Source of the DNA: Candidatus Altiarchaeota archaeon
GTDB taxonomy: Archaea > Altiarchaeota > Altiarchaeia > IMC4 > SCGC-AAA252-I15
Length of the DNA stretch: 64,000 nt
Direction: 5' to 3'
Assembly (NCBI GenBank): GCA_043800255.1
Contig: JAZDNF010000006.1
Location: forward strand, 3,901 to 67,900
The notes under the pieces: model-generated
Seen by the model: the letters and a program-made list of their open reading frames with translations, nothing else
The model's database searches: none
Told to the model about the DNA's origin: nothing
Position numbers and translations under genes: made by a program
Part shown: positions 14,250 through 38,484 of the stretch, in pieces
How positions within the stretch are numbered: the stretch's first letter is position 1
How the letters are laid out: every line of letters starts with the position of its first letter

Positions 14250-14275
14250 ACAAAAAATCGAGTATTTTTAAACCA
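14250..14275 (+). promoter_or_regulatory. Putative archaeal TATA box upstream of the riboflavin operon.
   Basis: cgagTATTTTTAAAcc lies ~30-45 nt upstream of the ribB ATG at 14301. Confidence 0.4.
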
Positions 14276-14300
14276 TCAGGCGCACATATATTACCCTATC

Positions 14301-19057: not shown

Positions 19058-19099
19058 TTGAGTTCTTGGGGTAGATGGTGATTTTGAAATTCCAGCTCT

Positions 19100-19858
19100 T
19101 CACATTATATCGTCGAATAGTTTTTTCGCATTGTTGATGTAGTTGAGATCGTGTTTTATTATATCAGACACTGTCTCCCTGCGCTTTTCATCTGTTATGG
19201 TTTCCGCTTTCTTCAGCCCGTTTTTGAGAATCCGCATCGCCTTCTCGCCTCTCCCAGAGGGTATGGAACGCCCCAGAGGCGGTTTGGACTCGTCGACCAG
19301 TGAGTTGGCGAGCGCTGCCCCCGCCCACTTGTTAGTCTCGTATGTGAAGGCTTCGCCTGTGAGAGCATCCTCGAGGACGTCAAAAACGGATTTAACAATG
19401 TCCTCCCTGTCGCCGGGCGCCAAGACTATGACCTTCCTAAGCCCCTGGGATGCAGCCTGCTTGGCGTCGCTGTCAGTTTCACTGTCGGTTAGAGCCTCGG
19501 TCAGAAGAGCCATACCAGCATTAGCCCTCTTCCAGTCCGGGTCTTTGATTACAACATCTGCGACAGCGTCGGCAGCCTTCAGCTTGTCAGACAGCGTTGC
19601 CTTTGGATTGAATAGGAGTTCCCCTTTTGTGCCAGCCAGTTCAGGCTCCTTTAGGGGAGGCATCTCCGCGGCATCCTTCTGGGGTTTCTTCTCCTGAGGA
19701 GGCATACTGTAGGGTTGCTTCTTCGCCTCCTTCGTCTCCCCCGTGCGGAGGTCAACGGTAAACCTTCTCGGAAGCTGTTTTTCTCTAACCATTTGTCGGT
19801 TTTTTGAGGTAGGTTTCTTTGGGGCCTGCCGCCTGTTTTCCGTTAACGTATACTCCAA
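19100..19858 (-). CDS. Hypothetical protein (252 aa, HEAT-like helical). The true start may be the internal Met near 19792.
   Basis: Complete ORF. Its 5' end overlaps the bactofilin gene by 74 nt in a different frame; if Met23 is the start the overlap is 8 nt. Lys/Pro-rich N-terminal region. Confidence 0.5.
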   Translation of the reverse strand: MEYTLTENRRQAPKKPTSKNRQMVREKQLPRRFTVDLRTGETKEAKKQPYSMPPQEKKPQKDAAEMPPLKEPELAGTKGELLFNPKATLSDKLKAADAVADVVIKDPDWKRANAGMALLTEALTDSETDSDAKQAASQGLRKVIVLAPGDREDIVKSVFDVLEDALTGEAFTYETNKWAGAALANSLVDESKPPLGRSIPSGRGEKAMRILKNGLKKAETITDEKRRETVSDIIKHDLNYINNAKKLFDDIM

Positions 19859-24633: not shown

Positions 24634-25863
24634 ATGGCCAAGGATCAGACTAGAATAGTGTTTGTCTTAACTGTCTTCGTTATGAGCGTCTTATATTCCG
24701 CATCTGCGAAGTCCCTCGTCGAGTGGGATACTGACGCCAGAGAGAGGTACAATAATGCGAAGAACGAGTATCTGCGGGTGAGTAATGCTTACAGGGAGGC
24801 GATGCAGGACTGGATCACGGCGAAGAACGCCTACCAGCAGAACAAGAGCAAGGGGAACACGGAGAACGCCCTTGAAAGTTGGAAGAACCACCTGCTTGCG
24901 GCAGACCAGAGGCTTGTGGCCTACCTCGAGGCTCTGAAAGCTTACGCCGAAGGCGAGCCGACTTTGGATGAAACAGAAAGGCAGGAGATAATCTCTGAAG
25001 TGGAGGGTTACATCAACTGGCTGGAGCAGAAGCAGCCTGAGATCGAGGCTGCGACCACAAGGCAGGAGCTGCAGGACATCACAACGACTGTCAGAGAGGA
25101 ATGGAATAGTATAAAACCTGCAACCAGGAGGATAATCGGGCAGATGATGAACGCGAAAGTCTTATGGGTTATAAACAAGGCGGAGAACGTTTCAGCAAAG
25201 GCTGAGGAAGCGATAGACAAGCTCGACGCGGCTGGGGAGGACACAACCGAGCTGGAGTCGCTGCTTGCAGACTTCAACGCGAAATTGGACCTGGCCAGGG
25301 AGAAGCATGATGCCGCCAGCGCAAAGTACGCTGAAAGCAGAAATGCTGGAGAAGTGGACAGCCTGCTTAGAGAGGCTGACGCTCTGGTTAGGGAGGCTAA
25401 CGGTTACCTGAAGGAAGCGTACACGACGCTGAAGCAGCTGGTGAAGGAGATACGGGAGTCCGCTTCAGGGAAGGTGAGAGTCCGCGGCACGGGGAAACTG
25501 TGGGCTGCTGGAGACGGGGAGGCCACAATCTCAGGAAATGCCACAGTCGAGTTGACCGGGGAGGACGGAGAGCTTGAGCTGCACGACAAAGGAGGGGACA
25601 TGATTGAGACGGTGACCGGCTTCGGAGACAGGAGAGTGACCGGGCAGATAATAAGGTACAGTGGATCCGGCACAGCAACAGTCTCGGGGAGCGACATCGT
25701 CGTCAAACTGGAAGCCTCGAATGTCGACCTGTACGCTGAAGGCACAGGCAAAGCCAAACTGAAGGGAACTGGAACGTATAAGACGTGCGGGACTGGCGCG
25801 TGCGCTGAAGGCGCGTGGACTTCCGCCGGCGTTGACGTGACCATCTCAGCGAACGTAGGATGA
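24634..25863 (+). CDS. Secreted coiled-coil protein with a Gly/Thr-rich beta C-terminal region (409 aa).
   Basis: N-terminal signal/anchor IVFVLTVFVMSVLYSASA, a long helical region, then GTGK.../GSGTATVSG repeats. Confidence 0.6.
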   Translation: MAKDQTRIVFVLTVFVMSVLYSASAKSLVEWDTDARERYNNAKNEYLRVSNAYREAMQDWITAKNAYQQNKSKGNTENALESWKNHLLAADQRLVAYLEALKAYAEGEPTLDETERQEIISEVEGYINWLEQKQPEIEAATTRQELQDITTTVREEWNSIKPATRRIIGQMMNAKVLWVINKAENVSAKAEEAIDKLDAAGEDTTELESLLADFNAKLDLAREKHDAASAKYAESRNAGEVDSLLREADALVREANGYLKEAYTTLKQLVKEIRESASGKVRVRGTGKLWAAGDGEATISGNATVELTGEDGELELHDKGGDMIETVTGFGDRRVTGQIIRYSGSGTATVSGSDIVVKLEASNVDLYAEGTGKAKLKGTGTYKTCGTGACAEGAWTSAGVDVTISANVG

Positions 25864-26240
25864 AAAACAGGATACTGATAATTGGGATAATAGCGCTGCT
25901 TGTCTTGTCCAGCCCAGGATGCCTCAGAAAATTGAGAGGCGGACAGAGAGCCACCACAATCGTGCCAACGACCATAGCAGAGACTCAACAGGCTGCCCCA
26001 ACAGACGAGGAAGCCTCCGAAGCAGAGCCGATAGCTGACATAACCTCTGAAGAATCCAAGCTGACGCCTCCGGACGTTGACTTAGACTTAGACCTCGAGC
26101 CAACAACGACTGTTGAAACCACCATCCCAGAGGTAATGTCAGACGAAGACCTGGCAGAACTTGATACCATCATAAACAACATCAACACCATAGAAACAGA
26201 ACTGTACGCAGGCGACCTGGACCTGGACATCAGCCTGTGA
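25860..26240 (+). CDS. Small acidic secreted lipoprotein-like protein (126 aa).
   Basis: Signal peptide MKNRILIIGIIALLVLSSPGC, then a D/E/T-rich region. 4-nt overlap with the upstream gene. Confidence 0.5.
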   Translation: MKNRILIIGIIALLVLSSPGCLRKLRGGQRATTIVPTTIAETQQAAPTDEEASEAEPIADITSEESKLTPPDVDLDLDLEPTTTVETTIPEVMSDEDLAELDTIINNINTIETELYAGDLDLDISL

Positions 26241-26351
26241 GCCCCCATTAGTTCCCTTCTTAGGGGACTAGGGCGAGCCACAGGCCGCACCAAGATAACG
26301 GGGGATTGAGAGCAAGGGAATCAGTAAGAAGTCTGGGATTGTCTCTTGCAG

Positions 26352-26374
26352 TCATTGCTCGTCTTTGTGATATA
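26352..26374. repeat. Direct repeat copy 1 (tcattgctcgtctttgtgatata).
   Basis: 22/23 identity to 27269-27291. The match extends ~12 nt further (tctcttgcag versus tctctggcag) across a 6-nt indel. Confidence 0.6.
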
Positions 26375-26432
26375 ACCTTAAAAAAGAGGATATGATAGTA
26401 TTCCTAGATCTATTTGAGGCATAGTGTTGGTT
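26352..26432 (-). pseudogene. Truncated remnant of a relE-like toxin gene 3' end.
   Basis: The minus strand encodes ...NTIISSFLRLYHKDEQ*, bounded by an upstream in-frame stop. This matches the C-terminus of the intact RelE at 27269-27517 (...KIIFLDLYHKDEQ*). The terminal 23 nt are a 22/23 match. Confidence 0.4.
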
Positions 26433-26460
26433 TTATTTTAGCATTTCGATATTTGATGTA

Positions 26461-26955
26461 ATGTCAAACGCTGGCCCCGTTATTCTGTATTTGGATAATA
26501 CCGAGCTTTACGGCTCCTTGAAGAAAGCGATAAAACACTATCTAACTGGAGGTACTGGAGGTGTACGATCTAAGTTTCTGGATTATCTAAAGAAGTTGCA
26601 GGATTCGGGGGGTGTCGTTGTATTAACTTCTGAGCTCGCTGAATTTGAAGCTATTAGACGACTGCTCACGGATTTCCCAGAATTGACGTTTAACAAGGCT
26701 CTTGAAGCTTGGATGGAGTTGAGGGGAAGGTATGATATTCGTTCAATAGATCTCCGAGACTGTAAGACAATAAATCTTGACCTTAAATTCTTCCAGAAAA
26801 CAGGATTCGACTATAAAGATGGGATGCATTATTCAGTGGCAAAAAAATATGGGGCTTTTATTGTGACTGGAGATGGGAAATTTGGAGAAACGGCAGAGCA
26901 GGTATACAAGGGTAAAGTACTAAGAAGAGGGGACGTATATCAAAAATTCAAGTAA
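26461..26955 (+). CDS. PIN-domain protein (VapC-like nuclease fold), 164 aa.
   Basis: The N-terminal Asp sits in ILYLDNTELYG. C-terminal AFIVTGDGKF resembles the PIN TxDxxF motif. AT-rich codon usage. Confidence 0.55.
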   Translation: MSNAGPVILYLDNTELYGSLKKAIKHYLTGGTGGVRSKFLDYLKKLQDSGGVVVLTSELAEFEAIRRLLTDFPELTFNKALEAWMELRGRYDIRSIDLRDCKTINLDLKFFQKTGFDYKDGMHYSVAKKYGAFIVTGDGKFGETAEQVYKGKVLRRGDVYQKFK

Positions 26956-27268
26956 TTATTTAGATTTCTTAATGATTTTAGCTAAATCTTTTGCTATGGT
27001 ATCTAGATTAACCCTGTTAGACACTCCTTTTACCTCAGTTACAGGAATCCGAAAACCATTAACTTTCAGGGTTTTTTTCACCGCATGGATTTGCATAATA
27101 GCTCACCCGTATACAATATAATAGAGGATATAGAACTTAAAAAAGGGCCATTTTTGTTTATTCTACTCAAACGTGCATTTACTTCTTAAAACAGCCTTCT
27201 AGGCAGTATACAGTTAGTTTCTGTTTTTCTGGGCAGCGTTTTTCCATGTTTTTCTCTGGCAGGATCAC

Positions 27269-27291
27269 TCATTGCTCGTCTTTGTGGTATA
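27269..27291. repeat. Direct repeat copy 2 (tcattgctcgtctttgtggtata), which is the 3' end of the relE coding sequence.
   Basis: See copy 1. The two copies flank the PIN gene 26461-26955, about 915 bp apart. Confidence 0.6.
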
Positions 27292-27517
27292 GGTCTAGGA
27301 AGATTATTTTGTCCTCTTTTTTGAGGTGCATGTATGACAGGCGGAATGGCGGGATTTTGACTTCCCTGCTGTCCTTTCGGACGTAGCGCATCGGTTTTCC
27401 GACTTCAGGATTGCTGACTATCTTCTTAATCTGCTTTTTGACTCGTTCTTTCAGGTCTCGGTTTTTGATTCTCTTTATTATGTTCTCAAAATGCGGTTCG
27501 TATGCGACAGTTACCAT
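27269..27517 (-). CDS. relE: RelE/ParE-family type II toxin.
   Basis: 82 aa. The C-terminal ...RLSYMHLKKEDKIIFLDLYHKDEQ pattern is typical of RelE/StbE toxins. 7-nt overlap with the upstream antitoxin gene. Confidence 0.7.
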   Translation of the reverse strand: MVTVAYEPHFENIIKRIKNRDLKERVKKQIKKIVSNPEVGKPMRYVRKDSREVKIPPFRLSYMHLKKEDKIIFLDLYHKDEQ

Positions 27518-27780
27518 GTCTCAAGTTCAGCCAGGAATTTGTCGCCGCTAGTCTCCTTGAACTTGCCCTTCTCGTATCTTTCCAACGCCTCCACAGTCCT
27601 TTTCGCGAACTTCAAGTCTTCCATGAAAGTCCCACCCAACTCCCGGACCGGTTTGAGTATGAACTGGCGGTCTTTTTTGATGATGACGAATTTATCGCCC
27701 ACATTGAACCCCTCCCGCATGTCCTGCGGTATCACAACCTGACCCTTGGAACTTAATTTGGTAACGTCCACATTAATCAT
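27511..27780 (-). CDS. AbrB/MazE/SpoVT-family antitoxin.
   Basis: 89 aa. ...LSSKGQVVIPQDMREGFNVGDKFVII is a swapped-hairpin AbrB/MazE motif. Immediately upstream of and overlapping relE. Confidence 0.7.
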   Translation of the reverse strand: MINVDVTKLSSKGQVVIPQDMREGFNVGDKFVIIKKDRQFILKPVRELGGTFMEDLKFAKRTVEALERYEKGKFKETSGDKFLAELETW

Positions 27781-28096
27781 CTAGATCACCATAATAAGAT
27801 TCGTCTTACCAATATATAAACCAACATTCTGGGCAAAAAACCCACCAATAGTCGCGGAAGCGGGGAGTTGCCCCTTCAGTTTTCCGTTGGAGAAGCAGAG
27901 TTTCCTGCGTCGCCCGCTCTCCCGCACATCCAAGTGTAGTGTAATACAGTAAAAACATCACAAACAACGGAAAAATAGGGGGCTGTGCGAGCAATATGGA
28001 CAGGTAAATGCATAGTTGGCCCATATTTTATTGCGGGTAAAGCCGGTAGACCAATATACCTTGGAGTGAACGTCTCCAGTGTCTGCCGGTACTGTG

Positions 28097-28960
28097 TCAC
28101 TGTTTCTGTCCTCTTTTCCTGACTATTCTTTTCAGTTTTTCTGGAATTTGAAGGTAGTTTTCAGATGTTATTACGCTTCTTCCGCTCTCGTACTCTAGTT
28201 TTTTTCTTGCGTCGCCGGCTATGGTGCCCCCTCGTCTGGCCACTGTTTTGTTTTGGATAAATCCTCTTGCATCCCTTTTACGGGCTATCTCCGTCGTTGC
28301 CGCCTCTCCGAGCATGGTGAATATCAGCTCCAGGTCGGTCATATGGTCCCGCAGGTTCTCGCGCTTTAGGCCCTTGTATTTCAGGTATTGACTGGGGGTC
28401 ATGCCGAAGGTGGCGTCCGATATCTCAGCCGTCAATATGGCGAATTCTGTGTCTTGTTTAACTCCCCTCTTGTTCCATTCTCCGGTAAGTTCGTCTCTTA
28501 CGGCGATACCTCTCACTCTTTTCTCAATCCAGTCCTCAGAGTAGCCTTTTGCTTGGTAAATCCCTCGCATCCGTCCCATAGCCAGTTCAGGATTCCCTAT
28601 CTCCTGCACTCTCTCGTAGCCGACTTTCGCAAGCCATCTCTTGAAAGGTTCTGCTTTCTTGGAGGGGATAGATTGTATTATCCTGAACATAGACTCTGTG
28701 TTGGCGCAGTCTGTTAGGTATTTTTTGCCGTCTGGTGCGGACAGTTTCAGTTGTACCCAAATTGGGGACAACTGAAGTTGTGCGAATTCCCTCTCTTTGA
28801 CCTTCCCCCAATACTGGCGGGGTGTCGGGCTGTCAGTCAAAACCTGGACGACGTCCACGACCGAGAAATACCATTCCTTATCATGCCAGACCCTACGAAT
28901 CTGTTTGCCCTGAAAAACGACCAACGAATTATCCTCATCCATACCAACCACAAACAACAA
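28097..28960 (-). CDS. Bro-N domain protein (phage antirepressor / DinD-like family).
   Basis: 287 aa. N-terminal VVFQGKQIRRVWHDKEWYFSVVDVVQVLTDS fits the Bro-N pattern. Island context. Confidence 0.65.
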   Translation of the reverse strand: MLFVVGMDEDNSLVVFQGKQIRRVWHDKEWYFSVVDVVQVLTDSPTPRQYWGKVKEREFAQLQLSPIWVQLKLSAPDGKKYLTDCANTESMFRIIQSIPSKKAEPFKRWLAKVGYERVQEIGNPELAMGRMRGIYQAKGYSEDWIEKRVRGIAVRDELTGEWNKRGVKQDTEFAILTAEISDATFGMTPSQYLKYKGLKRENLRDHMTDLELIFTMLGEAATTEIARKRDARGFIQNKTVARRGGTIAGDARKKLEYESGRSVITSENYLQIPEKLKRIVRKRGQKQ

Positions 28961-29014
28961 TACATATTAACTCTAGAAAGCCCTTAAAAACACCGCGAGC
29001 AACGGAAAAATAGA

Positions 29015-29713
29015 TCATGCTCCCACCTCTACGATTTTAGCCCCCGTAATCCTCGAAAGTTGGTTCGCAAGAGTTTTATTCTTCACGTAAATCATTGGTG
29101 GGTACAGTTCTTCTGAGGATACTCCATCTATTGAAGATGGCCTACAAACAAATAGTAATGTGTCAATGTCTGAATTTCTGAATAGAGTCTTTGAAACGAT
29201 ATCCTTGTTTGAGATAAAAGAATAAAACCTTTTTAGTGTGGCTATTATGCAATCATAAAAGATGACACCCCATAATTGGTTATCCGAATCTTTTCCCCTC
29301 CGTTTAGAGTTGATATGTTTGATGCACCTATTTATTTTAGAGAGGGCTTCTTTTTCGTTTTTTGGCAGGTTCAATGGTAACGACGAACTATGAACGTTCC
29401 TCTTAAGAGACGTATTGATTGAAGTAATCTCAACATCTACTCCTTTGTCTTTAATTTCATAATCCGGGACTTTATTAGACTTGTTCTCTTGAATCCGAGT
29501 TAAATCTCCTAATGGACTTAGTACCTTCTTAACATAGCGTTCGAGTTGCGGCGTAACCACATTTGTTCTGATAAAATCTTGATACGAGATAATACCATTG
29601 CTCGACACATTCTTACCATCCATACAGGGCCCATAGTATATTTTCATCAGGCCTTCAATATCCTGTGGAGGGTCATAACTCGCCTTATCCATGATTCTCC
29701 TCAACAATCCCAA
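29015..29713 (-). CDS. Hypothetical protein (232 aa), island-encoded.
   Basis: Complete AT-rich ORF with no motif recognised. Confidence 0.45.
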   Translation of the reverse strand: MGLLRRIMDKASYDPPQDIEGLMKIYYGPCMDGKNVSSNGIISYQDFIRTNVVTPQLERYVKKVLSPLGDLTRIQENKSNKVPDYEIKDKGVDVEITSINTSLKRNVHSSSLPLNLPKNEKEALSKINRCIKHINSKRRGKDSDNQLWGVIFYDCIIATLKRFYSFISNKDIVSKTLFRNSDIDTLLFVCRPSSIDGVSSEELYPPMIYVKNKTLANQLSRITGAKIVEVGA

Positions 29714-29771
29714 TCTCTCCGTCTAACTTCTTTTCGTACCAATCAAGAGGAAATATGTGGAACATAATGTT

Positions 29772-30659
29772 TTATGTACTATCTGTTTGTTTTTGAGAAT
29801 TGATTTCATCGATCAACATTTTTTCGAATGAGAGGTGAAACTCTAATGTTCGGGAAAATGTTTTGTCCATCCAATCTAACGTTTTTACAGAAGTATACTC
29901 ATCACCTTTTCTCAGAAAAGGTTTATTCGGAATCCTATGACACCATGTTTTTTCAGCAGGATTGCCAGTAATTGAAAATATCGTTTCTGAATGAGAATGA
30001 AAAGACATTCGTTTTCTTCCATGAGCCACATAACGTCTAAGCTCATTTAGTTTGGGTGTACTGAGTATCTCGATTATGTCACCATACTCTTTTTGCGTCC
30101 GTGAATATTTTTGTAGTTCTTTTTCATAGTCCGTGACTGGCTTCTGAGGCGTAAAAATCCAGTTATAAGATTCTACCAGAAGGTACTCTTCGAAGGAGGG
30201 AGCTATCTGCGTTGTCCCTTTGTTTTTTAGTTGCTTAAATAGATTACCAAAACCAAATTCAGGGTCGTACTTCCTGCGGAGGGTTATCCTAAATAATTTT
30301 GCTAATGAATCTAAACTGCCGCGTAGGGATAAAATAAAAGCATCAAGTTCAAACTCCAGAAGAACGTGGAACTTGGATTTCTCAGTTATTTTTTCATCTG
30401 AAGAATATGCCATGGAGTAAACTGAATGCATCTTCTGAAAAAGAAAATAGTGAAAACATGCACTTTCAAGAGAATGTGAAAGGCCAGATATTAGTTCCTC
30501 GAATAGGTGTTTATCGTCTGCAAGGATGCTCTTCTCAAGTTCTTTATCTAAATGTTTACTTCTTTCGAAAAAATCACCGAATTTTCCATTAAAAAAAGAT
30601 AAAAACTCTTTCTCAGAAAAATCAAGATTCAATCCATTATCCTGTTCCATCTTCGACAA
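29772..30659 (-). CDS. Hypothetical protein (295 aa). It lies directly downstream of, and overlaps by 23 nt, the Type IIG R-M gene.
   Basis: Complete ORF. The overlap suggests translational coupling with the upstream R-M gene. Confidence 0.45.
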   Translation of the reverse strand: MSKMEQDNGLNLDFSEKEFLSFFNGKFGDFFERSKHLDKELEKSILADDKHLFEELISGLSHSLESACFHYFLFQKMHSVYSMAYSSDEKITEKSKFHVLLEFELDAFILSLRGSLDSLAKLFRITLRRKYDPEFGFGNLFKQLKNKGTTQIAPSFEEYLLVESYNWIFTPQKPVTDYEKELQKYSRTQKEYGDIIEILSTPKLNELRRYVAHGRKRMSFHSHSETIFSITGNPAEKTWCHRIPNKPFLRKGDEYTSVKTLDWMDKTFSRTLEFHLSFEKMLIDEINSQKQTDST

Positions 30660-33606
30660 TTTTTATTTCGTCTTCCGTTAGGCCATATAGCTTATACACG
30701 AGCGAGTTTATCTCATTATCTGTGGCCTCAATCTGCCGCTCCAAAACAGACCTCTCCTGAGGAGTTTTAACACCAGCCAAATGATTATGCAAACCCAACA
30801 TACGAGAAACCAAAGAAACAACATCATCATGCTGTTTCTTCTCAAGAGGATTTGAAAAGTCTATTCGTCTTATTGAGATTTTTGATATGCTATTCCAGAA
30901 ATATTCGTATATCCCTCCACTTTTTAATTTTCCTATGCTCTTGAATCTGTATGTTAAAAGTTTTGAATTCAACAAACCTAGTAAGTATAGCAGATCTTCT
31001 GGTTGATTGTTTTCGAATAATACAGTCGTATCTGTTAAGCCTATAAATTCATTAGCATAATCTATTGCAAAACGATTATATTTTGCAAGATATGGGCACA
31101 TTATTTTTTTTCTGTCATAATGTTCTTTATGGAGGGGCCATGTATACTTCCACCATTCACAGTCCCCACGTTTGTATGCTGCTCGTGCTTTTAATTCACT
31201 TGAATTTTCAAGGAGATGTTTTTGAACAGCATTGGGAAGATTATCAAATTTAATAACATCTTCTAAATATAACAAATAGTCTCCTCGATCTTTAATGAAG
31301 AATCGTTGGATATCTGAGTTTGATGCCCGGTTATAATAGTTTCCCTTTTTTACACCCCAACTAATTATCTTATCTGACGTTATTTTTCCAAAAACATTAT
31401 TCCTACCCGTTTGCATACCTTGACCAATAATAAGGATTTGCCCTAATTTCTCTCCCTCGTTATCGATTTTCTCGTTCAATAATGCGTTGTCCTCTGAAAC
31501 GAAAGACCATGGCTCTGAAGTTAAGTTAGATTGTCCTATTCTTATCTTTTGAAAAATAGAAAAATTCTGAATTTGTCTACTTAAATTTGATGTTAGTAGT
31601 TCATCTCCTAACAATTTGTATACATCGATCTTTCCATTTTTCGAGCTTGATTGTAGGTTGATTATACAGGTTGTAATACCTACTCGGGGGAATATAGGGT
31701 AATTCTGAAAATCAATTATCTCAGAAATTCTTGAATTTTCAAGGATATAACCCCTCAATTTATCTGCTTTGTATGCTTCAAGGAATGCTCTTGAAACAAT
31801 AAAGCTGATATAATCTTGAGACAGCTGTAGTGCTTTTCCAATAAAGTAGAAAAGTATATCCGTTTTATCATTGTAGATTTCAGGATAACCCTTTTTTATG
31901 GCTTTCAATCTAGGGTCTTTTTTACCCCACGTATCATCAATGTTCAAATACGGCGGATTCCCTATCACTGCATCAAACTTGAAGGGGAATTCTTTTTTCC
32001 AGTTGAATGTGTTTATCCGGAGCGTTTCTTCTTCGGTGAATATTTTGGTCTGGCCTGTGTAGAAGTCGGGGCCGATGAGGCTGTTCCCGCATTTGATGTT
32101 ATTGTCCAGGTCGGGCAGTACGCGGCCTCCGAGGCGTTTCTGGGGTTCCCTGTGCTCGTCCTCCAAGACTTTCAAAAGTAGATTAAGCTTTGCGACCTCG
32201 ACGGCCTGCTCGTCAATATCAACACCGTATATGTTGTTCAAGAGTATCCGTTTCTTCTCGCCCAATGTCAGATACCATTGTCCGCCTTTGCCCTGATAGA
32301 CGGCATCCTTGTTTTTGCCGGGATCGTGACTTACGTACCAGTCCCTATGATAATCTAAAAGCTTCTGATACGCTCCAATCAAAAACGAACCTGAACCGCA
32401 CGCTGGGTCGAGAACTTTCAGTTTCTCAACCTGCTTGGGAGATTTGCCCTCAATAAGCCTTCCGACAGTATTTTGAACGATATAGTCTACGATGTATTTT
32501 GGCGTGTAATAGACGCCGCCGGCCTTCTTCACCTCTGGCTTTTCCTCGACTTTGGCGCGATGGCCTTCGGTAAGGCGTATTACTTTCCCTAGGAACTGCT
32601 CGTAGACGTTGCCGAGGATGTCAGCCCCGATGACTGAGAACTCATAAGGGCAATTCGGGTAATACAGGTTCTTGATCATGTCCCTGAAGACTTTATCATC
32701 AATCTTCAGGTTCGGGCAGACGTAATCCGGGAAAGACGTCCGTCCCTTTTCCTCTTTGAAATAGAATATCCCAGAATTGTATTTCTCATCAGCTTTTTCG
32801 AAAAGCCTCAGCAAATGGGTGTAAATGTCCTCCTTCTCCGATATCTCCTGAAGCTGTTCGTATGGTTCTATCCCCCGATCCTCGCATATTCTCAAGAATA
32901 TTATCCGGTCTATGGTCTTCTGGACTGCATAATTTATCTCACGAACAGAGTATTTTGGATTCCTCAATGCGATGTTCTTTGCCAGCTCATCCCTCCACCT
33001 CTCAATCTCCTTCAGGAATTCGTCATCCACCTCGGATGTGCCTTTTTTGCCCTTGACAGATTCAGCATACTGGTCGAACAAGCCGTGCTCTATCGAAGTC
33101 TTGGCGAAAATATTTGCTATCTCATCCCAACGGGTCGCATACTCGTCATAGCGTACGTACAATATCCTCCCAACACTGGCAGAGTCGTTTGGCAAGGGTT
33201 TCTTACGGCAATCATATACTGCAAACTCTTCGAAATCGGTTAGAACAGCGAGAGGCAGTTTCGCGCTCCAGGAATATCTCCGAATCTGATATGCCGGGCT
33301 GACATCGCCCTTGATGTTCACAGAAGGCTTTTTAGTCTCGAGGAAAAATTTTCGTGTCCCGCCGATACGGAAAGAATAATCCGGAGCCTTGATGTTCTGA
33401 CCTATTCTAATCGCATCCTCGTGGATCACATCCTTGTAGGCTTCAGCGATTCCCTTAACATTACGAACATCCCAACCCAATTCCTCAAAAAAGGGATTGA
33501 TGAATTCCTCCCTCAATTGAGTTTCATTATAAGCAGCGCTCAAATATGATTTCTTGTTCCACTCAAATCTCTCAACCAACTCAACAATCTTCTCCGGCGC
33601 AGCCAT
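30637..33606 (-). CDS. Type IIG restriction-modification enzyme: fused endonuclease, gamma-class N6-adenine DNA methyltransferase and target-recognition domain (Eco57I/MmeI-like).
   Basis: 989 aa. The N-terminus has a restriction-enzyme-like motif (...ETQLREEFINPFFEELGWDV...). MTase motif I is LDPACGSGSFL and motif IV is VIGNPPYLNI. A long C-terminal TRD-like region follows. Confidence 0.85.
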   Translation of the reverse strand: MAAPEKIVELVERFEWNKKSYLSAAYNETQLREEFINPFFEELGWDVRNVKGIAEAYKDVIHEDAIRIGQNIKAPDYSFRIGGTRKFFLETKKPSVNIKGDVSPAYQIRRYSWSAKLPLAVLTDFEEFAVYDCRKKPLPNDSASVGRILYVRYDEYATRWDEIANIFAKTSIEHGLFDQYAESVKGKKGTSEVDDEFLKEIERWRDELAKNIALRNPKYSVREINYAVQKTIDRIIFLRICEDRGIEPYEQLQEISEKEDIYTHLLRLFEKADEKYNSGIFYFKEEKGRTSFPDYVCPNLKIDDKVFRDMIKNLYYPNCPYEFSVIGADILGNVYEQFLGKVIRLTEGHRAKVEEKPEVKKAGGVYYTPKYIVDYIVQNTVGRLIEGKSPKQVEKLKVLDPACGSGSFLIGAYQKLLDYHRDWYVSHDPGKNKDAVYQGKGGQWYLTLGEKKRILLNNIYGVDIDEQAVEVAKLNLLLKVLEDEHREPQKRLGGRVLPDLDNNIKCGNSLIGPDFYTGQTKIFTEEETLRINTFNWKKEFPFKFDAVIGNPPYLNIDDTWGKKDPRLKAIKKGYPEIYNDKTDILFYFIGKALQLSQDYISFIVSRAFLEAYKADKLRGYILENSRISEIIDFQNYPIFPRVGITTCIINLQSSSKNGKIDVYKLLGDELLTSNLSRQIQNFSIFQKIRIGQSNLTSEPWSFVSEDNALLNEKIDNEGEKLGQILIIGQGMQTGRNNVFGKITSDKIISWGVKKGNYYNRASNSDIQRFFIKDRGDYLLYLEDVIKFDNLPNAVQKHLLENSSELKARAAYKRGDCEWWKYTWPLHKEHYDRKKIMCPYLAKYNRFAIDYANEFIGLTDTTVLFENNQPEDLLYLLGLLNSKLLTYRFKSIGKLKSGGIYEYFWNSISKISIRRIDFSNPLEKKQHDDVVSLVSRMLGLHNHLAGVKTPQERSVLERQIEATDNEINSLVYKLYGLTEDEIKIVEDGTG

Positions 33607-33681
33607 CTCTACAAGTTATTATCGAATAACAAGATTAAATCGTTAATAGTCCTGATTTTCCAATCTACTCCGTTTCCTATT

Positions 33682-34899
33682 TTATTCGTCGTCTTTGATT
33701 TTGCTGAGGGTTAAGCGTGTGGTTTCTTCGGGGGTGGCGTATTTTCTGAGGATTTCCTCCAGTTCCTGGGGGAATTCGTGCTTTTCAAGTTTTCCGGCCA
33801 GTCCCATTATGTTTAGGGTGCTTACGTCATCCCAGAAGCCGTCTTTTTTCAGTATCTCCTCTAGTTTCTGCCTTTCCTTTGTGTTCGCGGCGGGAAATTT
33901 GAGAGCCTCTTTCACTGCAACGCGCACCCGCTTATCGGAGCCGTAGATGTACTCTACCCCCTCCTTTTTAGCGTATGCTACTAAGGCTTCAGCAAGCTGA
34001 GCATACTCCTCCTCAAACCAGGCCTTGAACTCCTGCTCCCTGACCTTCAGTTCGGCGTACTTGTTGGCTAAGACGACCCCCTCCTCAGCCATGTATTTGT
34101 TTAACGGCAGCTGCCGGGTTTTAACTTGATGTTTCTTGATTTTGCAATACTCTTGGAAGGCACACCAGGCACATAGACCGGATTCTATGGCGGGGAAATT
34201 GTCGTCGGTGGTCGCCTGTTCTATGCTTTGTATGATACCTAAAAATTCTGTTTTAAGGTCTTCCAGGTGCTGGCTCGTCCGTTTGGATCTGAGTTCCTTG
34301 TCGAATACTAGGTAATGCCATACTAAGTCAACTTCCTCTACATCGTCCCACATCTGGCGAATGCCTATCTCGTAGAGGGCTAGTTGTTGATCCCTGTTCT
34401 TCTTATCCTGGGTTGGAAGATGTTGGCTTGTCTTGTAATCGTGTATTTCATAAATTCCATCACCGACAGTATCCAGGCGGTCTATGTAGCCGATAAAATT
34501 ATACTGGTTATCGCCTAGCAGGTCTACGGTAACCATCATCTCAGTTTCGAGGGTCTTCCCTTTCTCAAAGGGTTTATAGCGGTTATAGTAGTCCACCAGA
34601 CACTTTTCGCCGACAATCCGGTAATGCTCTTGTGTCAAACCCTCCTTGTTGACGACGACGTCAGGGTTTATGTATCTCACCCAGGAGTCGTTATAACCTC
34701 CTAAAAGTTCGTCAACAGAAGCGATTTTCCCGTGATTGCGATCTATATAGAACTTCTCCAAAGCCTCATGAACCCGCTTGCCCATGAAAGCCTCAATACC
34801 CTCAAAAGCCTCGACGTCCAGCTTATCGATATACTGAAACTTAAATGCCAGAGGACAATTCTCGAAACATTGTAGACGAGAATACGAGTACCTCATCAT
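33682..34899 (-). CDS. PD-(D/E)XK RecB-family / Cas4-like nuclease with a Cys cluster.
   Basis: 405 aa. The N-terminal YSYSRLQCFENCPLAFKFQYI matches the Cas4/RecB-nuclease N-terminal motif. The later CAWCAFQEYC provides three more Cys, giving a 4Cys Fe-S-like arrangement. Confidence 0.7.
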   Translation of the reverse strand: MMRYSYSRLQCFENCPLAFKFQYIDKLDVEAFEGIEAFMGKRVHEALEKFYIDRNHGKIASVDELLGGYNDSWVRYINPDVVVNKEGLTQEHYRIVGEKCLVDYYNRYKPFEKGKTLETEMMVTVDLLGDNQYNFIGYIDRLDTVGDGIYEIHDYKTSQHLPTQDKKNRDQQLALYEIGIRQMWDDVEEVDLVWHYLVFDKELRSKRTSQHLEDLKTEFLGIIQSIEQATTDDNFPAIESGLCAWCAFQEYCKIKKHQVKTRQLPLNKYMAEEGVVLANKYAELKVREQEFKAWFEEEYAQLAEALVAYAKKEGVEYIYGSDKRVRVAVKEALKFPAANTKERQKLEEILKKDGFWDDVSTLNIMGLAGKLEKHEFPQELEEILRKYATPEETTRLTLSKIKDDE

Positions 34900-34980
34900 A
34901 TAGAATAGTGGATTATTTAGTTAAAGGTGGGGGGAGCATTGGAAAAATAGTCTAACCAATACAAGCCCCTATGTTTAGAT

Positions 34981-35100
34981 TAGTTGATGCATTGTGAACA
35001 GGTGATGCATAGTGTATCAACTAAGCCCTAGTTAGGATATCAATCAGGTGATATTGGTTCCTGTCTTAGGGAGTGATAAGAATCAGCTACTTCACAGGCG
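34981..35100. repeat. ~110-bp element A. It has a perfect 8-bp inverted repeat (tagttgat...atcaacta, 27-nt loop) followed by the conserved 27-mer agtgatAagaatcagctactTcacAggc.
   Basis: Homologous with indels to element B at 37681-37790. The 27-mer is a 24/27 match. Intergenic. Confidence 0.6.
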
Positions 35101-35169
35101 CTTGGAATGGGAGAAGTGGGCTTGGGAGCGTGATGGTGTGCCTGCTCGCGTACCCGTCCAATGAATCAT

Positions 35170-36276
35170 CTATTTGTTTTCAGCTACTTTTATCCAGCGG
35201 TCCAGGTAGTCAATTTTTATGACTTGTTGAAGTTTTTTGTTTTTGACCAGCACTTGTTTTAAATCTCCGATCAGGTCTGCTTTTTTATTGTATTCCTTAA
35301 CCTCTTTTGAGCGTGCGGCAAGGTAATGGTTTATCTGGGCTTCTCTTTCGTCTTGATTATTGCAGTATCCGCAGTCGCATTTCATAAGCTCTGGTGCATT
35401 CTTTTTTATGTAGTCAAGTTCTGAGCCTGAAAACCTATTCTTCAATCCTGGGACGTAGAAGCGCGAGTATTGTCTCTGGCCGAAGCCGGGAGATGCGCGT
35501 CTTAGTCTGTCTCCTGAGTCTGCACCGTGAACAATGGCGTGTATGTTGACGTTTGGTAATAAGAGGTCGAAGAAACTGCTATATGTTGAGATTATCGGCT
35601 TACCTGTCTGGGATAACCCGTTTAGTATGTCTTTGTATCCGCTTAGGTATTCCGTTGATGCGGAGTAGACATCGAATTCTATTGCGGAAAAGCAGAAGCC
35701 GTCGGCGTCTGATTTGGCGTAGGCATTGCATATTTGGGCTGCTGCTCTTTTATTGATGAGTAAGTCTATGGTCAAAGCCAAGCCAGCATATACTTTTTTC
35801 TTAGGATATAGTTCTTTTGCGTCTTTTATGAAATTGAGGTTATGCTGTTGTGCTGGGCAGTTTTCTTCGTCTATGAATCCATAAGGTGCTATGAGAAATT
35901 CCGGGTCCACTGTTTTAGTTACCTCATCTAGGGGGTCTTCGGATAGTGCCTCGTTAATCCTGTTCTCCTGGAAGGTAAGGAATTTTCTAACAAAATCTTT
36001 TCGTCGTTTCTTATCTGATGGTATCTGCCGTATTTCATCCTCCACATCCAGCTTTGACACGTACCTAGCATGTGACCTCTTGTCCGAAACAAGATCGTAT
36101 AAGTGGGGGTCTACGACGAAAGACTTGCCGGTTTTTAGAAGAATCTGGGAGAAAGCATTGTTGTAATACTCCAGGTTTGGGCTGTCAATTACGTAGCCGT
36201 CAAAGTGATCCTTTACTTTTTCTGTGAACTTTCCTTCTTGAGCATTGTATCTGACGTAAAACTTCATTTTTGCCAC
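35170..36276 (-). CDS. TGT-fold (tRNA-guanine transglycosylase / DpdA-like) protein lacking a PUA domain, 368 aa.
   Basis: ...IVHGADSGDRLRRASPGFGQ...ELMKCDCGYCNNQDEREAQINHYL. The CxCxxC...H spacing resembles the TGT/ArcTGT/DpdA zinc site, and DS..RRG resembles the TGT catalytic segment. This is pattern-level similarity only. Confidence 0.45.
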   Translation of the reverse strand: MAKMKFYVRYNAQEGKFTEKVKDHFDGYVIDSPNLEYYNNAFSQILLKTGKSFVVDPHLYDLVSDKRSHARYVSKLDVEDEIRQIPSDKKRRKDFVRKFLTFQENRINEALSEDPLDEVTKTVDPEFLIAPYGFIDEENCPAQQHNLNFIKDAKELYPKKKVYAGLALTIDLLINKRAAAQICNAYAKSDADGFCFSAIEFDVYSASTEYLSGYKDILNGLSQTGKPIISTYSSFFDLLLPNVNIHAIVHGADSGDRLRRASPGFGQRQYSRFYVPGLKNRFSGSELDYIKKNAPELMKCDCGYCNNQDEREAQINHYLAARSKEVKEYNKKADLIGDLKQVLVKNKKLQQVIKIDYLDRWIKVAENK

Positions 36277-36640
36277 GCTTCAAGGGTGACGATAGCCTTG
36301 ACTTGCTAATTACTTTACATTCGCCTTTTTTTATACTCAATATTCCGACTCCAAGCTCCCTGAAGGTGCCTACGTCGAGTCTGGCAGCCAGATTATGGGG
36401 TATTGCAACGTAATTGTAATGGCAGTATGATGTGTTCAAAGCTGCCTGCCTAAGTGCCCTACGCCAGTCTGAGACCTTAACTTCAACGGAGGTTAAACGC
36501 CCCGTAGACTTCCGTTTGAAGACCAGATCCATGCTTTTCCGGTAGCTTTTCTCCGGATGGGTTCTGACCTCCTCAAATGGCTCAAAACCGTCATCGAATG
36601 TGTCCAGAATAGGACCATAGAGGGAAAGCTCAGAGGCCAT
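36200..36640 (-). CDS. Small PD-(D/E)XK nuclease-fold protein (Hjc-like), 146 aa.
   Basis: ...SMDLVFKRKSTGRLTSVEVKVSD... resembles the Hjc D-x(n)-E-V-K catalytic motif (VDLVA...IEVKVTK). Its 3' end overlaps the TGT-like gene by ~77 nt. Confidence 0.5.
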   Translation of the reverse strand: MASELSLYGPILDTFDDGFEPFEEVRTHPEKSYRKSMDLVFKRKSTGRLTSVEVKVSDWRRALRQAALNTSYCHYNYVAIPHNLAARLDVGTFRELGVGILSIKKGECKVISKSRLSSPLKRGKNEVLRQIQCSRRKVHRKSKGSL

Positions 36641-36673
36641 TATCTTTAATTAATTGAGCCCCTAATTATTAAT

Positions 36674-37219
36674 ATGACCGTACAGAAGAATTTGAAGCCA
36701 ATCTTACTATTGTTCCTGCTCTCGAAGCTGAGCGAAAAGGGTGAGCGTAAGGTAGATAATCTGCGTTCCATGAAGCTCCTATTTCTGATACAAAAAGAGG
36801 GTGAAAAGCAGGTAGAAAAAGGATTCAACTTCGTACCATACAAATACGGCCCATATAGTGAAGACTACTTCGATACCTCAATATACCTGTCAGAGAAAGG
36901 TTTAATCGACGTGGAGACCGATGTTTCAGGAGACATCAAAGCAGTTAAAATCAAACCCGAGGGGAGTGAAAAAGTCGCAACCCTTCAAACGGCATATTCA
37001 GACATAGCATCGAGCGTCTCAAAGATAGTATCCGAATACGCAAACCTAAGCACCGACCTTCTGCTATTGTACATCTACTCGAAATATGCGGACTTCACCA
37101 TACGTTCCGAGATAAAGGACAAGATACTATCCATAGCAAAGGCCAACTTTAGCATATTACAGTCTAAGGCAAAACAATTCAACTTTTCCGAAGGAGAACT
37201 CAATTTAGTGGGGATTTAA
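36674..37219 (+). CDS. Panacea-domain (DUF4065 / SocA-like antitoxin) protein, 181 aa.
   Basis: ...MKLLFLIQKEG...FVPYKYGPYSEDYFD... fits the Panacea pattern. Directly precedes a PIN gene. Confidence 0.5.
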   Translation: MTVQKNLKPILLLFLLSKLSEKGERKVDNLRSMKLLFLIQKEGEKQVEKGFNFVPYKYGPYSEDYFDTSIYLSEKGLIDVETDVSGDIKAVKIKPEGSEKVATLQTAYSDIASSVSKIVSEYANLSTDLLLLYIYSKYADFTIRSEIKDKILSIAKANFSILQSKAKQFNFSEGELNLVGI

Positions 37220-37654
37220 GTGCTACGCATAATCGCGGATACAAACATCATACTATCAGGGTTATTCTTCGATAAAAACCCCGAGAAACTGTTACTGCTA
37301 GCCATAAACGGCGACCTAAAACTCATAATCCCCGAACTTGTCATAACAGAGGTAAACGAAAAAATAGAGGGAAAATTCTCAAAACAAGAAAACCTGGGGG
37401 CAGCAAGGGACTTTTGGTTCGTACTCCAAAAAGCATTCCGCGAAACAAAAGAGGACATACTCTCCGATAAGACTACTCCCATAGACTGTCCTGACTCCGA
37501 TGACACTAAGATTCTGGAATATGCAACCAAGATTAAGCCAGATTACGTCATATCAGGAAACCAACACGTACTCGACATCAAAGACCCTCCCTGTCAGATA
37601 ACCAAACTAAGAGCCTTTTTAGAAAAAGAATTTCCAGGAATCCTGGAGGATTAA
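37220..37654 (+). CDS. PIN-domain protein (VapC-like), 144 aa.
   Basis: LRIIADTNIILSG contains the first Asp. ITEVNEK and DSDDTKILEYA supply further acidic residues. The C-terminal VISGNQHVLD is a degenerate TxD motif. Confidence 0.55.
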   Translation: MLRIIADTNIILSGLFFDKNPEKLLLLAINGDLKLIIPELVITEVNEKIEGKFSKQENLGAARDFWFVLQKAFRETKEDILSDKTTPIDCPDSDDTKILEYATKIKPDYVISGNQHVLDIKDPPCQITKLRAFLEKEFPGILED

Positions 37655-37680
37655 TCCTTCCAGAGACCTAAAAAAATGCA

Positions 37681-37790
37681 CGTTGATAACATGGTGTGTT
37701 AGCCAATACAAGGGGTTATCAAAATCAGCAGAGACAAAGGGAATTTGGTGTTTGAGTCAAGCAGTGATGAGAATCAGCTACTCCACGGCT
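37681..37790. repeat. ~110-bp element B. It has a perfect 8-bp inverted repeat (ttgataac...gttatcaa, 23-nt loop) followed by the 27-mer agtgatGagaatcagctactCcacGgc.
   Basis: Pairs with element A (34981-35100). Together they delimit a ~2.7-kb cassette (35.1-37.75 kb). Element B ends ~8 nt from the stop of the bactofilin gene at 37798. Confidence 0.6.
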
Positions 37791-37797
37791 ATGGTCG

Positions 37798-38484
37798 TTA
37801 CTTGAGTCTGTTGGTGAGGGTTTGTCCGGGGCCTGCTTTTCTCTGGTTTTCTCTGAATCTGATGCGGCCCTGAAGTGAGAGGATGTCCTTGTAAGCGTAG
37901 ACTTCATCTGTTGCAGAGACTATGTCGTCTTTGGCGCGGATTCCGCCGCTCTTGGAGATGATAGGCCCTCTGGCCCGCATCACGCCGGATTTGGACTCTA
38001 TGTCCCCGTTGGCTGTGATGCTCCCATCCCAGGCGATGAGACTGTCGCCTGATGTTATGGAACCTCCGGCTGCTATGTCGCCCTTGAATGAGTTTATGGC
38101 CCCGCTGTGAGAGTATATGTCTCCGCCGGCCCGTATCGGGCCATTGTCAGCGTTTATGTCCCTCTCAGCCCGTATGCTGCCGACCGCGTCTATGCCGCCG
38201 TCAGCTTCTATCCTGCTCTTCGCCCTGAAATCAGGATTCGATATTATGAGCCTGCCTCCGGTCTTCAGGCGCTCAATCTGGGAGCAGGACTCGGCCAGGA
38301 TGAAATTCTCATCCCCGCCCCTGACGGCAACCTGATTTCCCACCAGGACTGTGTAATCAATGCCTTCGAGAGTGACCTTCCCATTGGAAACAGGGCATTG
38401 CCTGCCTCCGACCGTTAACTCAGCCAGAGGTTTGATGTCCTCAAGCCCGCCCCTCTCTCCCGCACAGTAGACCTTCTGGACCAT
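37798..38484 (-). CDS. Bactofilin-like beta-helical protein (second paralog), 228 aa.
   Basis: ...GGIDAVGSIRAERDINADNGPIRAGGDIYSHSGAINSFKGDIAAGGSITSGDSLIAWDGSITANGDIESKSGVMRARGPII, a bactofilin-type winding repeat. Confidence 0.7.
   Translation of the reverse strand: MVQKVYCAGERGGLEDIKPLAELTVGGRQCPVSNGKVTLEGIDYTVLVGNQVAVRGGDENFILAESCSQIERLKTGGRLIISNPDFRAKSRIEADGGIDAVGSIRAERDINADNGPIRAGGDIYSHSGAINSFKGDIAAGGSITSGDSLIAWDGSITANGDIESKSGVMRARGPIISKSGGIRAKDDIVSATDEVYAYKDILSLQGRIRFRENQRKAGPGQTLTNRLK

Follow-up and report, generated by a model that had tools for sequence, protein, structure and literature searches.

The window analyzed here, a stretch of 64,000 nucleotides from contig JAZDNF010000006.1 of a Candidatus Altiarchaeota archaeon, harbors three copies of a short intergenic sequence element (termed C0, A and B) that are positioned at the left edge, at an internal seam and at the right edge of an island of accessory genes with low guanine-plus-cytosine content (GC); all three are located on the + strand in direct orientation. 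The element is interpreted as an att-like junction site left by the tandem site-specific insertion of gene modules, a reading to which a probability of about 0.45 is assigned. It is favored because the copies coincide with both GC boundaries and with the seam and because the core of the element is conserved across otherwise unrelated genomes; it is also favored by the presence of the element at module seams in the vicinity of a recombinase gene in another archaeon (contig L075) and by the recurrence of TGATAA-like boxes. The general idea of an att-like site, already expressed in an earlier note on this DNA, fits better after the tests, with C0 found at the left island edge and B at the right one.

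Copies A and B are defined by a 24-nt core, AGTGAT[A/G]AGAATCAGCTACT[T/C]CAC, in which they agree at 22 of 24 positions and which is followed by (A)GGC (see Table 1 for coordinates). Apart from these two, the window contained no match to the core on either strand when up to three mismatches were allowed, and none of 100 shuffles gave a match. The earlier note had reported a shared 27-mer with 24 identical positions (35072-35098 and 37763-37789, + strand); this is borne out, the core plus (A)GGC being essentially the same stretch, and the core identity in pairwise alignment is well above 60%. Both copies are intergenic, and B ends at the previously stated distance of about 8 nt from the stop codon of the neighboring gene. 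By contrast, the description of A and B as diverged repeats of ~110 bp, with intervening stretches that align with indels, does not hold: gapless extension of the alignment covers 42 nt at 76% identity, the 95-nt flanks of the two copies align no better than shuffled sequences (p = 0.52 upstream, p = 0.72 downstream), and blastn detects the core alone; robust similarity extends over ~50 nt. The sole other block shared by A and B is the 14-mer TA[A/G]CCAATACAAG (starting at 34953 and 37700, respectively; 12 of 14 positions), whose distance to the core differs in each copy and which lies outside the hairpin in A and within the hairpin loop in B. According to the copies from different genomes (see below), the conserved unit comprises ~50 nt and consists of a palindromic box YYTG-NNN-YARG (within TTGGT...), the 24-nt core and (N)GGC; in the long form of the element, TGATAA-type palindromes precede the box and the core.

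Each of the two copies is accompanied on its 5' side by a perfect 8-bp hairpin, as had been noted before, although the loop of the B hairpin is N24 and not N23. Hairpins of this kind (perfect 8-bp stem, loop of 3-40 nt) are present in 5.8% of 110-nt windows. Among the 51 hits in the 64 kb, only two were counted as carrying TTGAT/ATCAA in the stem 8-mer, and these are the hairpins 5' of A and 5' of B; since such hairpins are rare and TTGAT stems are restricted to these two positions, the pairing of hairpin and core in A and B is not ascribed to chance. TGATAA-like boxes are a recurrent motif: they occur within the core (GTGATAAG), inverted in the box (TTCTTGTC) and in the stems of the hairpins, as would be consistent with one DNA-binding protein occupying several sites. 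A hidden small open reading frame (ORF) through the core was considered and rejected because the frames are not conserved between the copies: they are not kept downstream of the core, with a stop after 13 codons in B and another one in the copy designated E_int.

The third copy, C0, was recognized by its box, which is the sole other match in the 64 kb to the 19-mer box of A (either strand, up to three mismatches; 16 of 19 positions). The number of such matches expected by chance is 0.03 for the whole window, and it falls to roughly 1e-4 for the 200-nt stretch concerned. The sequence CACAGGC follows 13 nt after the C0 box, i.e. the same ending as in A and in the related copy on contig L001 (see below), whereas the interior differs from the core and is shorter.

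The island delimited by the outer copies extends over 11.5 kb (~26.25-37.8 kb) and shows a GC of 0.32-0.50 compared with 0.52-0.59 in the flanks, with a step from 0.43 to 0.56 at B. From left to right, a host gene is followed by C0, the accessory genes (8.8 kb), A, a cassette of 2.7 kb, B and a second host gene; the two host genes converge on the island. In the segment between C0 and A, at least nine genes are present, the cargo including a PIN gene, a relE/abrB-like pair, a Bro-N protein, a type IIG Eco57I-like restriction-modification gene, a Cas4-like PD-(D/E)XK nuclease and two genes without assigned family. The segment between A and B contains four genes arranged as two divergent pairs, at distances of 72 nt from A and 29 nt from B. 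The arms of the three copies differ: on the left side, the TTGAT hairpin and the CCAATACAAG box are present in A and B, neither of them occurring in C0, which directly abuts the host gene; on the right side, CACAGGC is common to C0 and A and absent from B. No tRNA gene was found in the 64-kb window by ARAGORN. The right host gene had been labeled a bactofilin; this label is not supported, since no family matched and the only homologue among 5.8 billion proteins was the protein itself.

Table 1. Position of the island, the junction copies and their parts, the cassette genes and the flanking host genes in the 64-kb window.
Feature	Position	Strand	Remarks
Left flanking high-GC host gene, 126 aa	25860-26240	+	last high-GC gene on the left; stop codon (26238-26240) 6 nt before C0
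Low-GC accessory (defence/toxin-antitoxin) island	26241-37797		GC profile, Pfam and PADLOC annotation
Copy C0, left island edge	26247-26285	+	box ATTAGTTCCCTTCTTAGGG (26247-26265), 13-nt interior GACTAGGGCGAGC, CACAGGC
Copy A, internal seam	34953-35100	+	parts in the following five rows
A: CCAATACAAG box	34953-34966	+	TA[A/G]CCAATACAAG 14-mer also in B
A: hairpin TAGTTGAT-N27-ATCAACTA	34981-35023	+	9 bp when extended by one base
A: second hairpin with half-motif GGATATCAATCAGG	within 34953-35100	+	
A: box ATTGGTTCCTGTCTTAGGG (19-mer)	35053-35071	+	directly 5' of core
A: core AGTGATAAGAATCAGCTACTTCAC	35072-35095	+	followed by AGGCG
Cassette gene 1: TIM-barrel protein, 368 aa, Cys/His zinc-type motif, weakly TGT-like	35170-36276	-	
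Cassette gene 2: PD-(D/E)XK-type nuclease, 146 aa	36200-36640	-	overlaps start of gene 1
Cassette gene 3: Panacea-like antitoxin, 181 aa	36674-37219	+	
Cassette gene 4: PIN-domain toxin, 144 aa	37220-37654	+	
Copy B, right island edge	37683-37790	+	parts in the following three rows
B: hairpin TTGATAAC-N24-GTTATCAA	37683-37722	+	CCAATACAAG box inside loop
B: box ATTTGGTGTTTGAGTCAAGC	37743-37762	+	
B: core AGTGATGAGAATCAGCTACTCCAC	37763-37786	+	followed by GGC
Right flanking high-GC host gene, 228 aa, beta-solenoid-like	37798-38484	-	stop codon (37798-37800) 8 nt after B; no known family

The element is not restricted to this window. Collection scans of species-representative genomes and of Joint Genome Institute (JGI) metagenomes yielded one locus from each; in total, about 9 copies have been identified in about 3 genomes. 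On L001, a 4.4-kb contig of an uncultured archaeon, all 24 core positions are identical; here, the element is located between a gene end and a gene for a small secreted protein, near flaI-like, hisI, eIF-1A and Rio genes. On L002, a contig from a sediment metagenome, the core is conserved at 23 of 24 positions, and a TTGATAAC-N5-GTTATCA palindrome with the same 8-mer as in the B hairpin is situated ~70 nt 5' of it. Neither the L001 nor the L002 proteins resemble any protein of the window. The core is identical or near-identical in loci with unrelated genes and unrelated flanks, which suggests sequence-specific recognition and not shared ancestry of the loci.

Longer contigs of the L002 organism (L072 and L075) reveal the surroundings of the element in that genome: a tyrosine recombinase gene (PF00589), a LAGLIDADG gene and a 263-aa gene are followed by palindromes, the element with the canonical core and two tandem four-gene modules, each of which encodes a ~150-aa protein, an RHS-tip-like toxin, a small protein and a transglutaminase. 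By a profile search of the L002-genome contigs, additional copies were detected between the modules and after the last one, all within this one locus; they retain the box and ...CTCCAC-NGGC, whereas the core interior differs (16 of 24 positions, mostly A/G changes). In this genome, the sequences that flank the copies on the left and on the right can be grouped into discrete types, and the homology breakpoints are located at the element edges. The recombinase gene lies 2.4 kb from the first element copy and is transcribed away from the array; its product is distantly XerA-like and reaches 24 bits against the integron-integrase model TIGR02249 (cut-off 265).

The modules of this organism are present as tandem, diverged copies (L075 341-8308, L072 187-3772, L002 3178-5072) with sizes of ~150 aa, ~278 aa for the RHS-tip-like toxin, 104 or 190 aa for the small protein and 631 aa for the transglutaminase. 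Two arrangements coexist within one sample (ERZ27247989) that are identical up to ~170-220 nt 3' of the element and ~75% identical from there on, which points to a strain-level exchange of toxin modules. The assembly break of L072 was dropped as a sign of variability: it is explained by a k = 141 overlap into the shared region, and the divergence begins ~130 nt further on.

According to the att-like reading, the ancestral state would have been a single copy of the element in the ~70-bp spacer between the convergent host genes (25860-26240, + strand; 37798-38484, - strand), and a site-specific recombinase, probably a tyrosine recombinase, would have inserted circular DNA modules with the same site there in succession; this enzyme would either be supplied in trans or have been lost since. 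Insertion of P-O-P' modules into a B-O-B' site would result in the order B-O-P' ... P-O-P' ... P-O-B': C0 would correspond to the left edge with the host arm on its left, A to the internal seam with an element-type arm including the hairpin on its left, and B to the right edge with an element-type arm on its left and the host arm on its right. The arm asymmetry observed among C0, A and B fits the pattern of successive insertion. The four-gene cassette would be mere cargo of the A-B segment, and this segment would be deleted or excised if two direct copies recombined.

Several observations weigh against this interpretation. No integrase or transposase domain was detected in the ORFs of the island or in the other window ORFs scanned, and the L075 integrase gave no tblastn match to the window. 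Fresh att duplicates are normally identical, whereas the copies described here are imperfect: A and B agree at 22 of 24 core positions, and C0 has a different, shorter interior without the 24-nt core. A strong dyad of the kind found in tyrosine-recombinase core sites is missing; the best conserved dyad symmetry in the element comprises 6-7 of 9 positions and is out of register across the copies. Homologues of the cassette occur elsewhere without the element, and the contig stretches retrieved for four homologues of the L075 recombinase (43-54% identity) contain no copy of it. Moreover, the tandem modules of L075 are paralogues, so that the element could have been copied there passively by duplication, and the evidence base is limited to the small number of copies and genomes given above.

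The earlier note had offered, as one possibility, that the four genes between A and B form a nested mobile cassette with the two copies as its ends; the labels of these genes were re-evaluated. The PIN assignment is confirmed (PF13470, E = 1e-12). For the Panacea-like antitoxin, PADLOC PDC-M19A (1.6e-17) and DarG-type matches agree with the label, whereas Pfam SocA_Panacea reaches E = 0.16 only. The tRNA-guanine transglycosylase (TGT)-like label of the large protein is likewise weakly supported: its AlphaFold2 model is a TIM barrel (pTM 0.80), for which the archaeosine TGT 1iq8 is the second-best structural match (E = 1.6e-4, TMq 0.48); no variation was seen in the three Cys of a CxCxxC motif or in a His further downstream. 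The nuclease, formerly termed Hjc-like, is supported solely as a generic PD-(D/E)XK enzyme, by its invariant residues D38/E53/K55 and faint Mrr/HSDR_N/YhcG matches. Neither the large protein nor the nuclease matched a Pfam or NCBIfam model, PADLOC giving a single faint match for the large protein (Cas11, E = 0.004).

Four homologues of the 368-aa protein (45-59% identity) were found, and the same four-gene cassette is present in five other contig families (contigs L003/4/5, L006, L007 and L008; L003 8575-11095, L005 3904-6424, L006 8587-11093, L007 49-2545, L008 1-2317). The arrangement is kept, with the PIN and Panacea-like genes on one strand and the genes of the ~140-aa nuclease and the ~365-aa protein on the other, and the overlap of gene 2 with the start of gene 1 also exists in the homologous loci. 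The neighboring genes elsewhere are unrelated (an rRNA operon plus a restriction-modification gene, grpE-dnaK-dnaJ, a type I specificity (S) subunit gene); Eco57I-like restriction-modification genes adjoin the cassette in three lineages. On L003 (1-5566), the cassette and a restriction-modification gene are situated beside an archaeal rRNA operon (16S, tRNA, 23S) and further tRNA genes. The four-gene cassette is thus a portable module, and it looks like a hitherto undescribed candidate defence system.

If A and B were the terminal repeats or attL/attR of this 2.7-kb cassette as a nested mobile element, their direct orientation, the exact enclosure of the four genes and the mobility of the cassette, whose genes stay together in at least six contig families with different neighbors, would be readily explained. 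However, in the five other contig families neither the element (6-9 substitutions allowed) nor direct repeats around the cassette could be found, and in L006 and L007 the neighboring genes directly abut it; no recombinase or transposase encoded by the cassette was found; the element occurs elsewhere with entirely different cargo; and the edge of the island, 8.8 kb further left, holds a third copy. The proposal of the earlier note that the repeats are the ends of a self-contained cassette is in consequence very improbable and has largely been refuted already. Since the cassette occurs elsewhere without the element or repeats, A and B are considered as features of the insertion site and not of the module.

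It is improbable, too, that the copies are passive relics, i.e. pieces without a present function that go back to an ancestral intergenic sequence and arose by segmental duplication or unequal homologous recombination while the island was being reshuffled. The island does contain other relics, among them a fragment of the relE 3' end in which a 39-nt stretch is inverted, and the copies have diverged, the flanks of A and B being essentially unalignable. Neutral decay should be uniform, yet the 24-nt core is retained at 22-24 of 24 positions beside randomized sequence; this core also persists in other genomes, where its flanks are unrelated, and the architecture of hairpin plus core is preserved although the hairpin sequences differ.

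The relE fragment itself is part of a pair of stretches (26349-26415 and 27266-27327) in which a 26-nt direct repeat (24 of 26 positions) is immediately followed by 39-nt arms that are mutually inverted (82%). On the right, the repeated sequence forms the 3' end of a relE-like toxin gene that is intact (27269-27517, - strand), ends with ...HLKKEDKIIFLDLYHKDEQ* and is preceded upstream by an AbrB/SpoVT-like antitoxin gene (~27514-27780, - strand); the left copy is a relE remnant encoding LYHKDEQ* at 26352-26375 (- strand) and NLKKEDMIVFLDLF at 26374-26415 (+ strand). Because its two parts read on opposite strands, the 39-nt piece must have been flipped in the remnant. The presence of a relE 3' remnant at the left island end shows that recombination has been active there. 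In the same region (26325-26355), the sequence TAAGAAGTCT-GGGATTGTCTCTTGCAGTCAT resembles the box and core start of L002 (local alignment p = 0.03, uncorrected) and might represent a truncated fourth copy; as it overlaps the homology of the relE 3' flank, this assignment is unproven.

Two further peculiarities of the island concern its accessory genes. The type IIG Eco57I/MmeI-like restriction-modification gene (989 aa; 30637-33606, - strand) exhibits a GC step near 31900, from ~0.47 in the N-terminal two-thirds to ~0.33 in the C-terminal part with the TaqI_C-type specificity region, which suggests that the specificity domain was swapped in. A box CTATTTTTCC(G/A)TTGC is found on the - strand at 27950-27978, 28985-29013 and 34934-34950, just 5' of - strand genes of the island (Bro-N, Cas4-like nuclease), and is probably a shared archaeal promoter module (TATA box/B recognition element, BRE).

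The distribution of the copies also bears on the question of whether the element could be a genome-scattered transposon, such as a miniature inverted-repeat transposable element (MITE) or the end of an insertion sequence (IS) of the IS200/IS605 (PATE) or another type. The subterminal hairpins in direct orientation are superficially similar to the left and right ends of IS200/IS605; however, the loops of 24-27 nt are unlike those of TnpA hairpins, and no tnpA, tnpB or Y1 transposase was present among the ORFs scanned. The window contains just three copies, all on the + strand, and each collection scan retrieved one exact copy on a single contig, the further, diverged copies of the L002 genome being confined to one locus; terminal inverted repeats, an inverted partner copy (up to 9 mismatches) and target-site duplications were not found. 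A transposon of this kind is consequently extremely improbable, and the element is not the multi-copy MITE that the earlier note had named as a possible outcome of a search for further copies. No copy was obtained from viral, plasmid or phage collections either (IMG/VR searched with the core, its two halves and the variant core; PLSDB and INPHARED searched with blastn), and a virus or plasmid origin was rejected since these collections gave chance half-matches only.

A core that is strongly conserved while its flanks drift would also be expected of the seed of a small RNA (sRNA). As the main rival of the att-like reading, the element could, with a rather low probability, be a small non-coding RNA gene or a cis-acting RNA or DNA regulatory module of this archaeal lineage, in the form of hairpins followed by a conserved single-stranded "seed" or of a signal associated with a 3' untranslated region or a terminator, its position in the island then being incidental. 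In favor of this reading, the A and B hairpins contain G-U pairs that are workable on the + strand only, 5 of about 8 copies are located 50-110 nt downstream of a same-strand gene, a T5-T7 run comes after each of the four copies of the L002 genome, and AT-rich TATA-like boxes are present 5' of the long-form copies; the orientation to the neighboring genes is inconsistent, however, and a T-run is absent from A, B and L001. With regard to folding, A is more stable than shuffled sequences (z = -2.2), whereas the z-scores of B, L001 and L002 are ~0 or positive on both strands, and RNAalifold revealed 0 consensus pairs in a comparison of eight sequences that is of low power. The dyad GTG(AT)RAG...CTYCAC shows one compensatory change between A and B (GAG/CTC versus AAG/CTT) but is paired in 77% of cells compared with 75% in shuffles. 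Rfam gave no match at the element, neither at the gathering threshold (window and six loci) nor at E <= 10 (region and L001/L002). In addition, an RNA or regulatory function would provide no reason for copies exactly at both GC boundaries of the island. The suggestion of the earlier note that A and B are duplicated small-RNA or regulatory modules has thus gained no positive support from Rfam matches, a consensus fold, covariation or the fold z-scores, which overall are near 0.

More specific RNA candidates were rejected as well. The - strand of the element was presumed to resemble the 23S segment GAGUAGCUGGUUC, which was not confirmed by comparison with the 23S and 16S of L003; the complementarity of 10-11 nt to these rRNAs is at the level of shuffled sequences, and no CUGA D box is present, which disfavors a C/D-box sRNA or rRNA guide. 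A tRNA fragment was dismissed since ARAGORN found no tRNA. An archaeal origin-recognition box (ORB; TCCAGTGGAAAC-like consensus) was also dropped: the likeness is restricted to ~8 nt, and the copies are in direct orientation and 2.7 kb apart, unlike ORBs; the spacer adjacent to cdc6 was inspected for repeats, with no search for the ORB pattern.

Some features of the window outside the island are recorded here. An orc1/cdc6 gene with Cdc6_lid and AAA domains (12779-13873, - strand) is adjoined by a non-coding stretch of ~430 nt (13874-14300) that contains an A-run together with a 14-nt inverted repeat whose arms (13950-13963 and 14104-14117) are separated by 140 nt; it yielded nothing in Rfam and could be a replication origin or an unannotated RNA. 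A giant ORF (1-7831, - strand, at least 2610 codons) runs off the left window end and contains internal repeats with periods of ~363 nt (3489-4981) and ~300 nt (2391-3011), a pattern that would suit a surface protein of very large size and repetitive structure. Finally, a 70-nt direct repeat (84%; 18334-18403 and 18990-19059) is present at the 5' ends of two adjacent - strand genes (18398-19057 and 19100-19792 region), which are probably tandem paralogues.

The island-level pattern of the element copies is new information, from which, based on about 9 copies of about 3 genomes, we infer the mechanism. Att-type junction repeats of genomic islands are a known kind of feature, to which the element would be an addition. 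To our knowledge, the mobile-element biology of Altiarchaeota-like archaea is almost undescribed; if the element is a recombination site, it would constitute a specific insertion hot-spot and a DNA signature for the gain and loss of defence and toxin modules in these organisms, and the signature could be used to locate island boundaries and the responsible recombinase in metagenomes. If it is a regulatory or RNA element, it would be a modest, lineage-specific curiosity. In either case, the portable four-gene module and the junction element, which had been merged in the earlier note, are now told apart: the element belongs to the site and not to the cargo.

Among the known systems, integrative elements and islands in tandem arrangement bounded by att sites are, next to the Xer/dif-dependent ones, the closest; they share with the present island the direct repeats at both edges of a compositionally foreign region and at an internal seam, the left/right arm asymmetry that successive insertion into one site predicts, and the defence and toxin-antitoxin cargo. 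They differ in that no integrase is encoded in the island or among the window ORFs scanned, that the target is a spacer between convergent genes and not a tRNA gene, and that the repeats are imperfect, the leftmost copy even being devoid of the 24-nt core.

The absence of a recombinase in cis is reminiscent of the Xer/dif system. Integrative mobile elements exploiting Xer (IMEX) and pdif modules are recombinase-less and often consist of toxin-antitoxin or accessory modules; they pile up as tandem arrays at a single short site of the chromosome, imperfect copies of which flank them, and are moved by the host recombinase in trans; the dif site itself comprises 28 bp with two inverted arms of roughly 11 bp and a 6-bp spacer. 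Under the att-like reading, the module logic would be the same. In contrast, the element lacks a dyad of the dif type, and the orc1/cdc6 gene is only about 12 kb away, which is not the expected place for a terminus site.

The L075 locus invites a comparison with integrons: the tyrosine recombinase gene points away from the module array, a copy of the site stands after every module, and the difference between the initial copy and those further along recalls that between attI and attC. A cargo rich in toxin-antitoxin and restriction genes has been reported for archaeal integron cassettes (PMC9668308) and is also found here; in the same study, Altiarchaeota served solely as the outgroup rooting a tree (PMC9668308). 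Nevertheless, the element fails every defining integron feature tested, i.e. attC R boxes, IntI and cassette structure. The stems TTGATAAC/GTTATCAA of B and TAGTTGAT/ATCAACTA of A do not fit the R''/R' boxes of attC (RYYYAAC/GTTRRRY), as only the AAC/GTT triplets of B agree with them and the order is reversed in A. The cassettes described here contain several genes in both orientations with own promoters, in contrast to the mostly single-ORF cassettes of uniform orientation in integrons, and an IntI-type integrase is encoded neither in the window nor by L075, the recombinase of which remains far below the model cut-off.

A more far-reaching version of the att-like reading, which is considered a long shot, would regard the element as the recombination site of an undescribed archaeal platform for cassette capture that follows an integron-like logic but is unrelated to IntI/attC. 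A trans-acting tyrosine recombinase would recognize a site of ~50 bp composed of TGATAA-type boxes and the 24-bp core, and multi-gene defence or toxin modules would be inserted, excised and duplicated at a fixed chromosomal spot; the window would then represent a recombinase-less array of the CALIN type (sites without integrase) and L075 a complete one.

The rAID-type clusters of Bacteroidales are recombinase-associated arrays of polymorphic toxin/immunity modules with repeated intergenic sequences. They belong to another domain of life and differ in sequence, and the window contains no toxin array and, among the ORFs scanned, no recombinase; the L072/L075 locus, by contrast, combines the same three features, i.e. 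tandem RHS-tip-like toxin modules, conserved intergenic repeats and a neighboring tyrosine recombinase.

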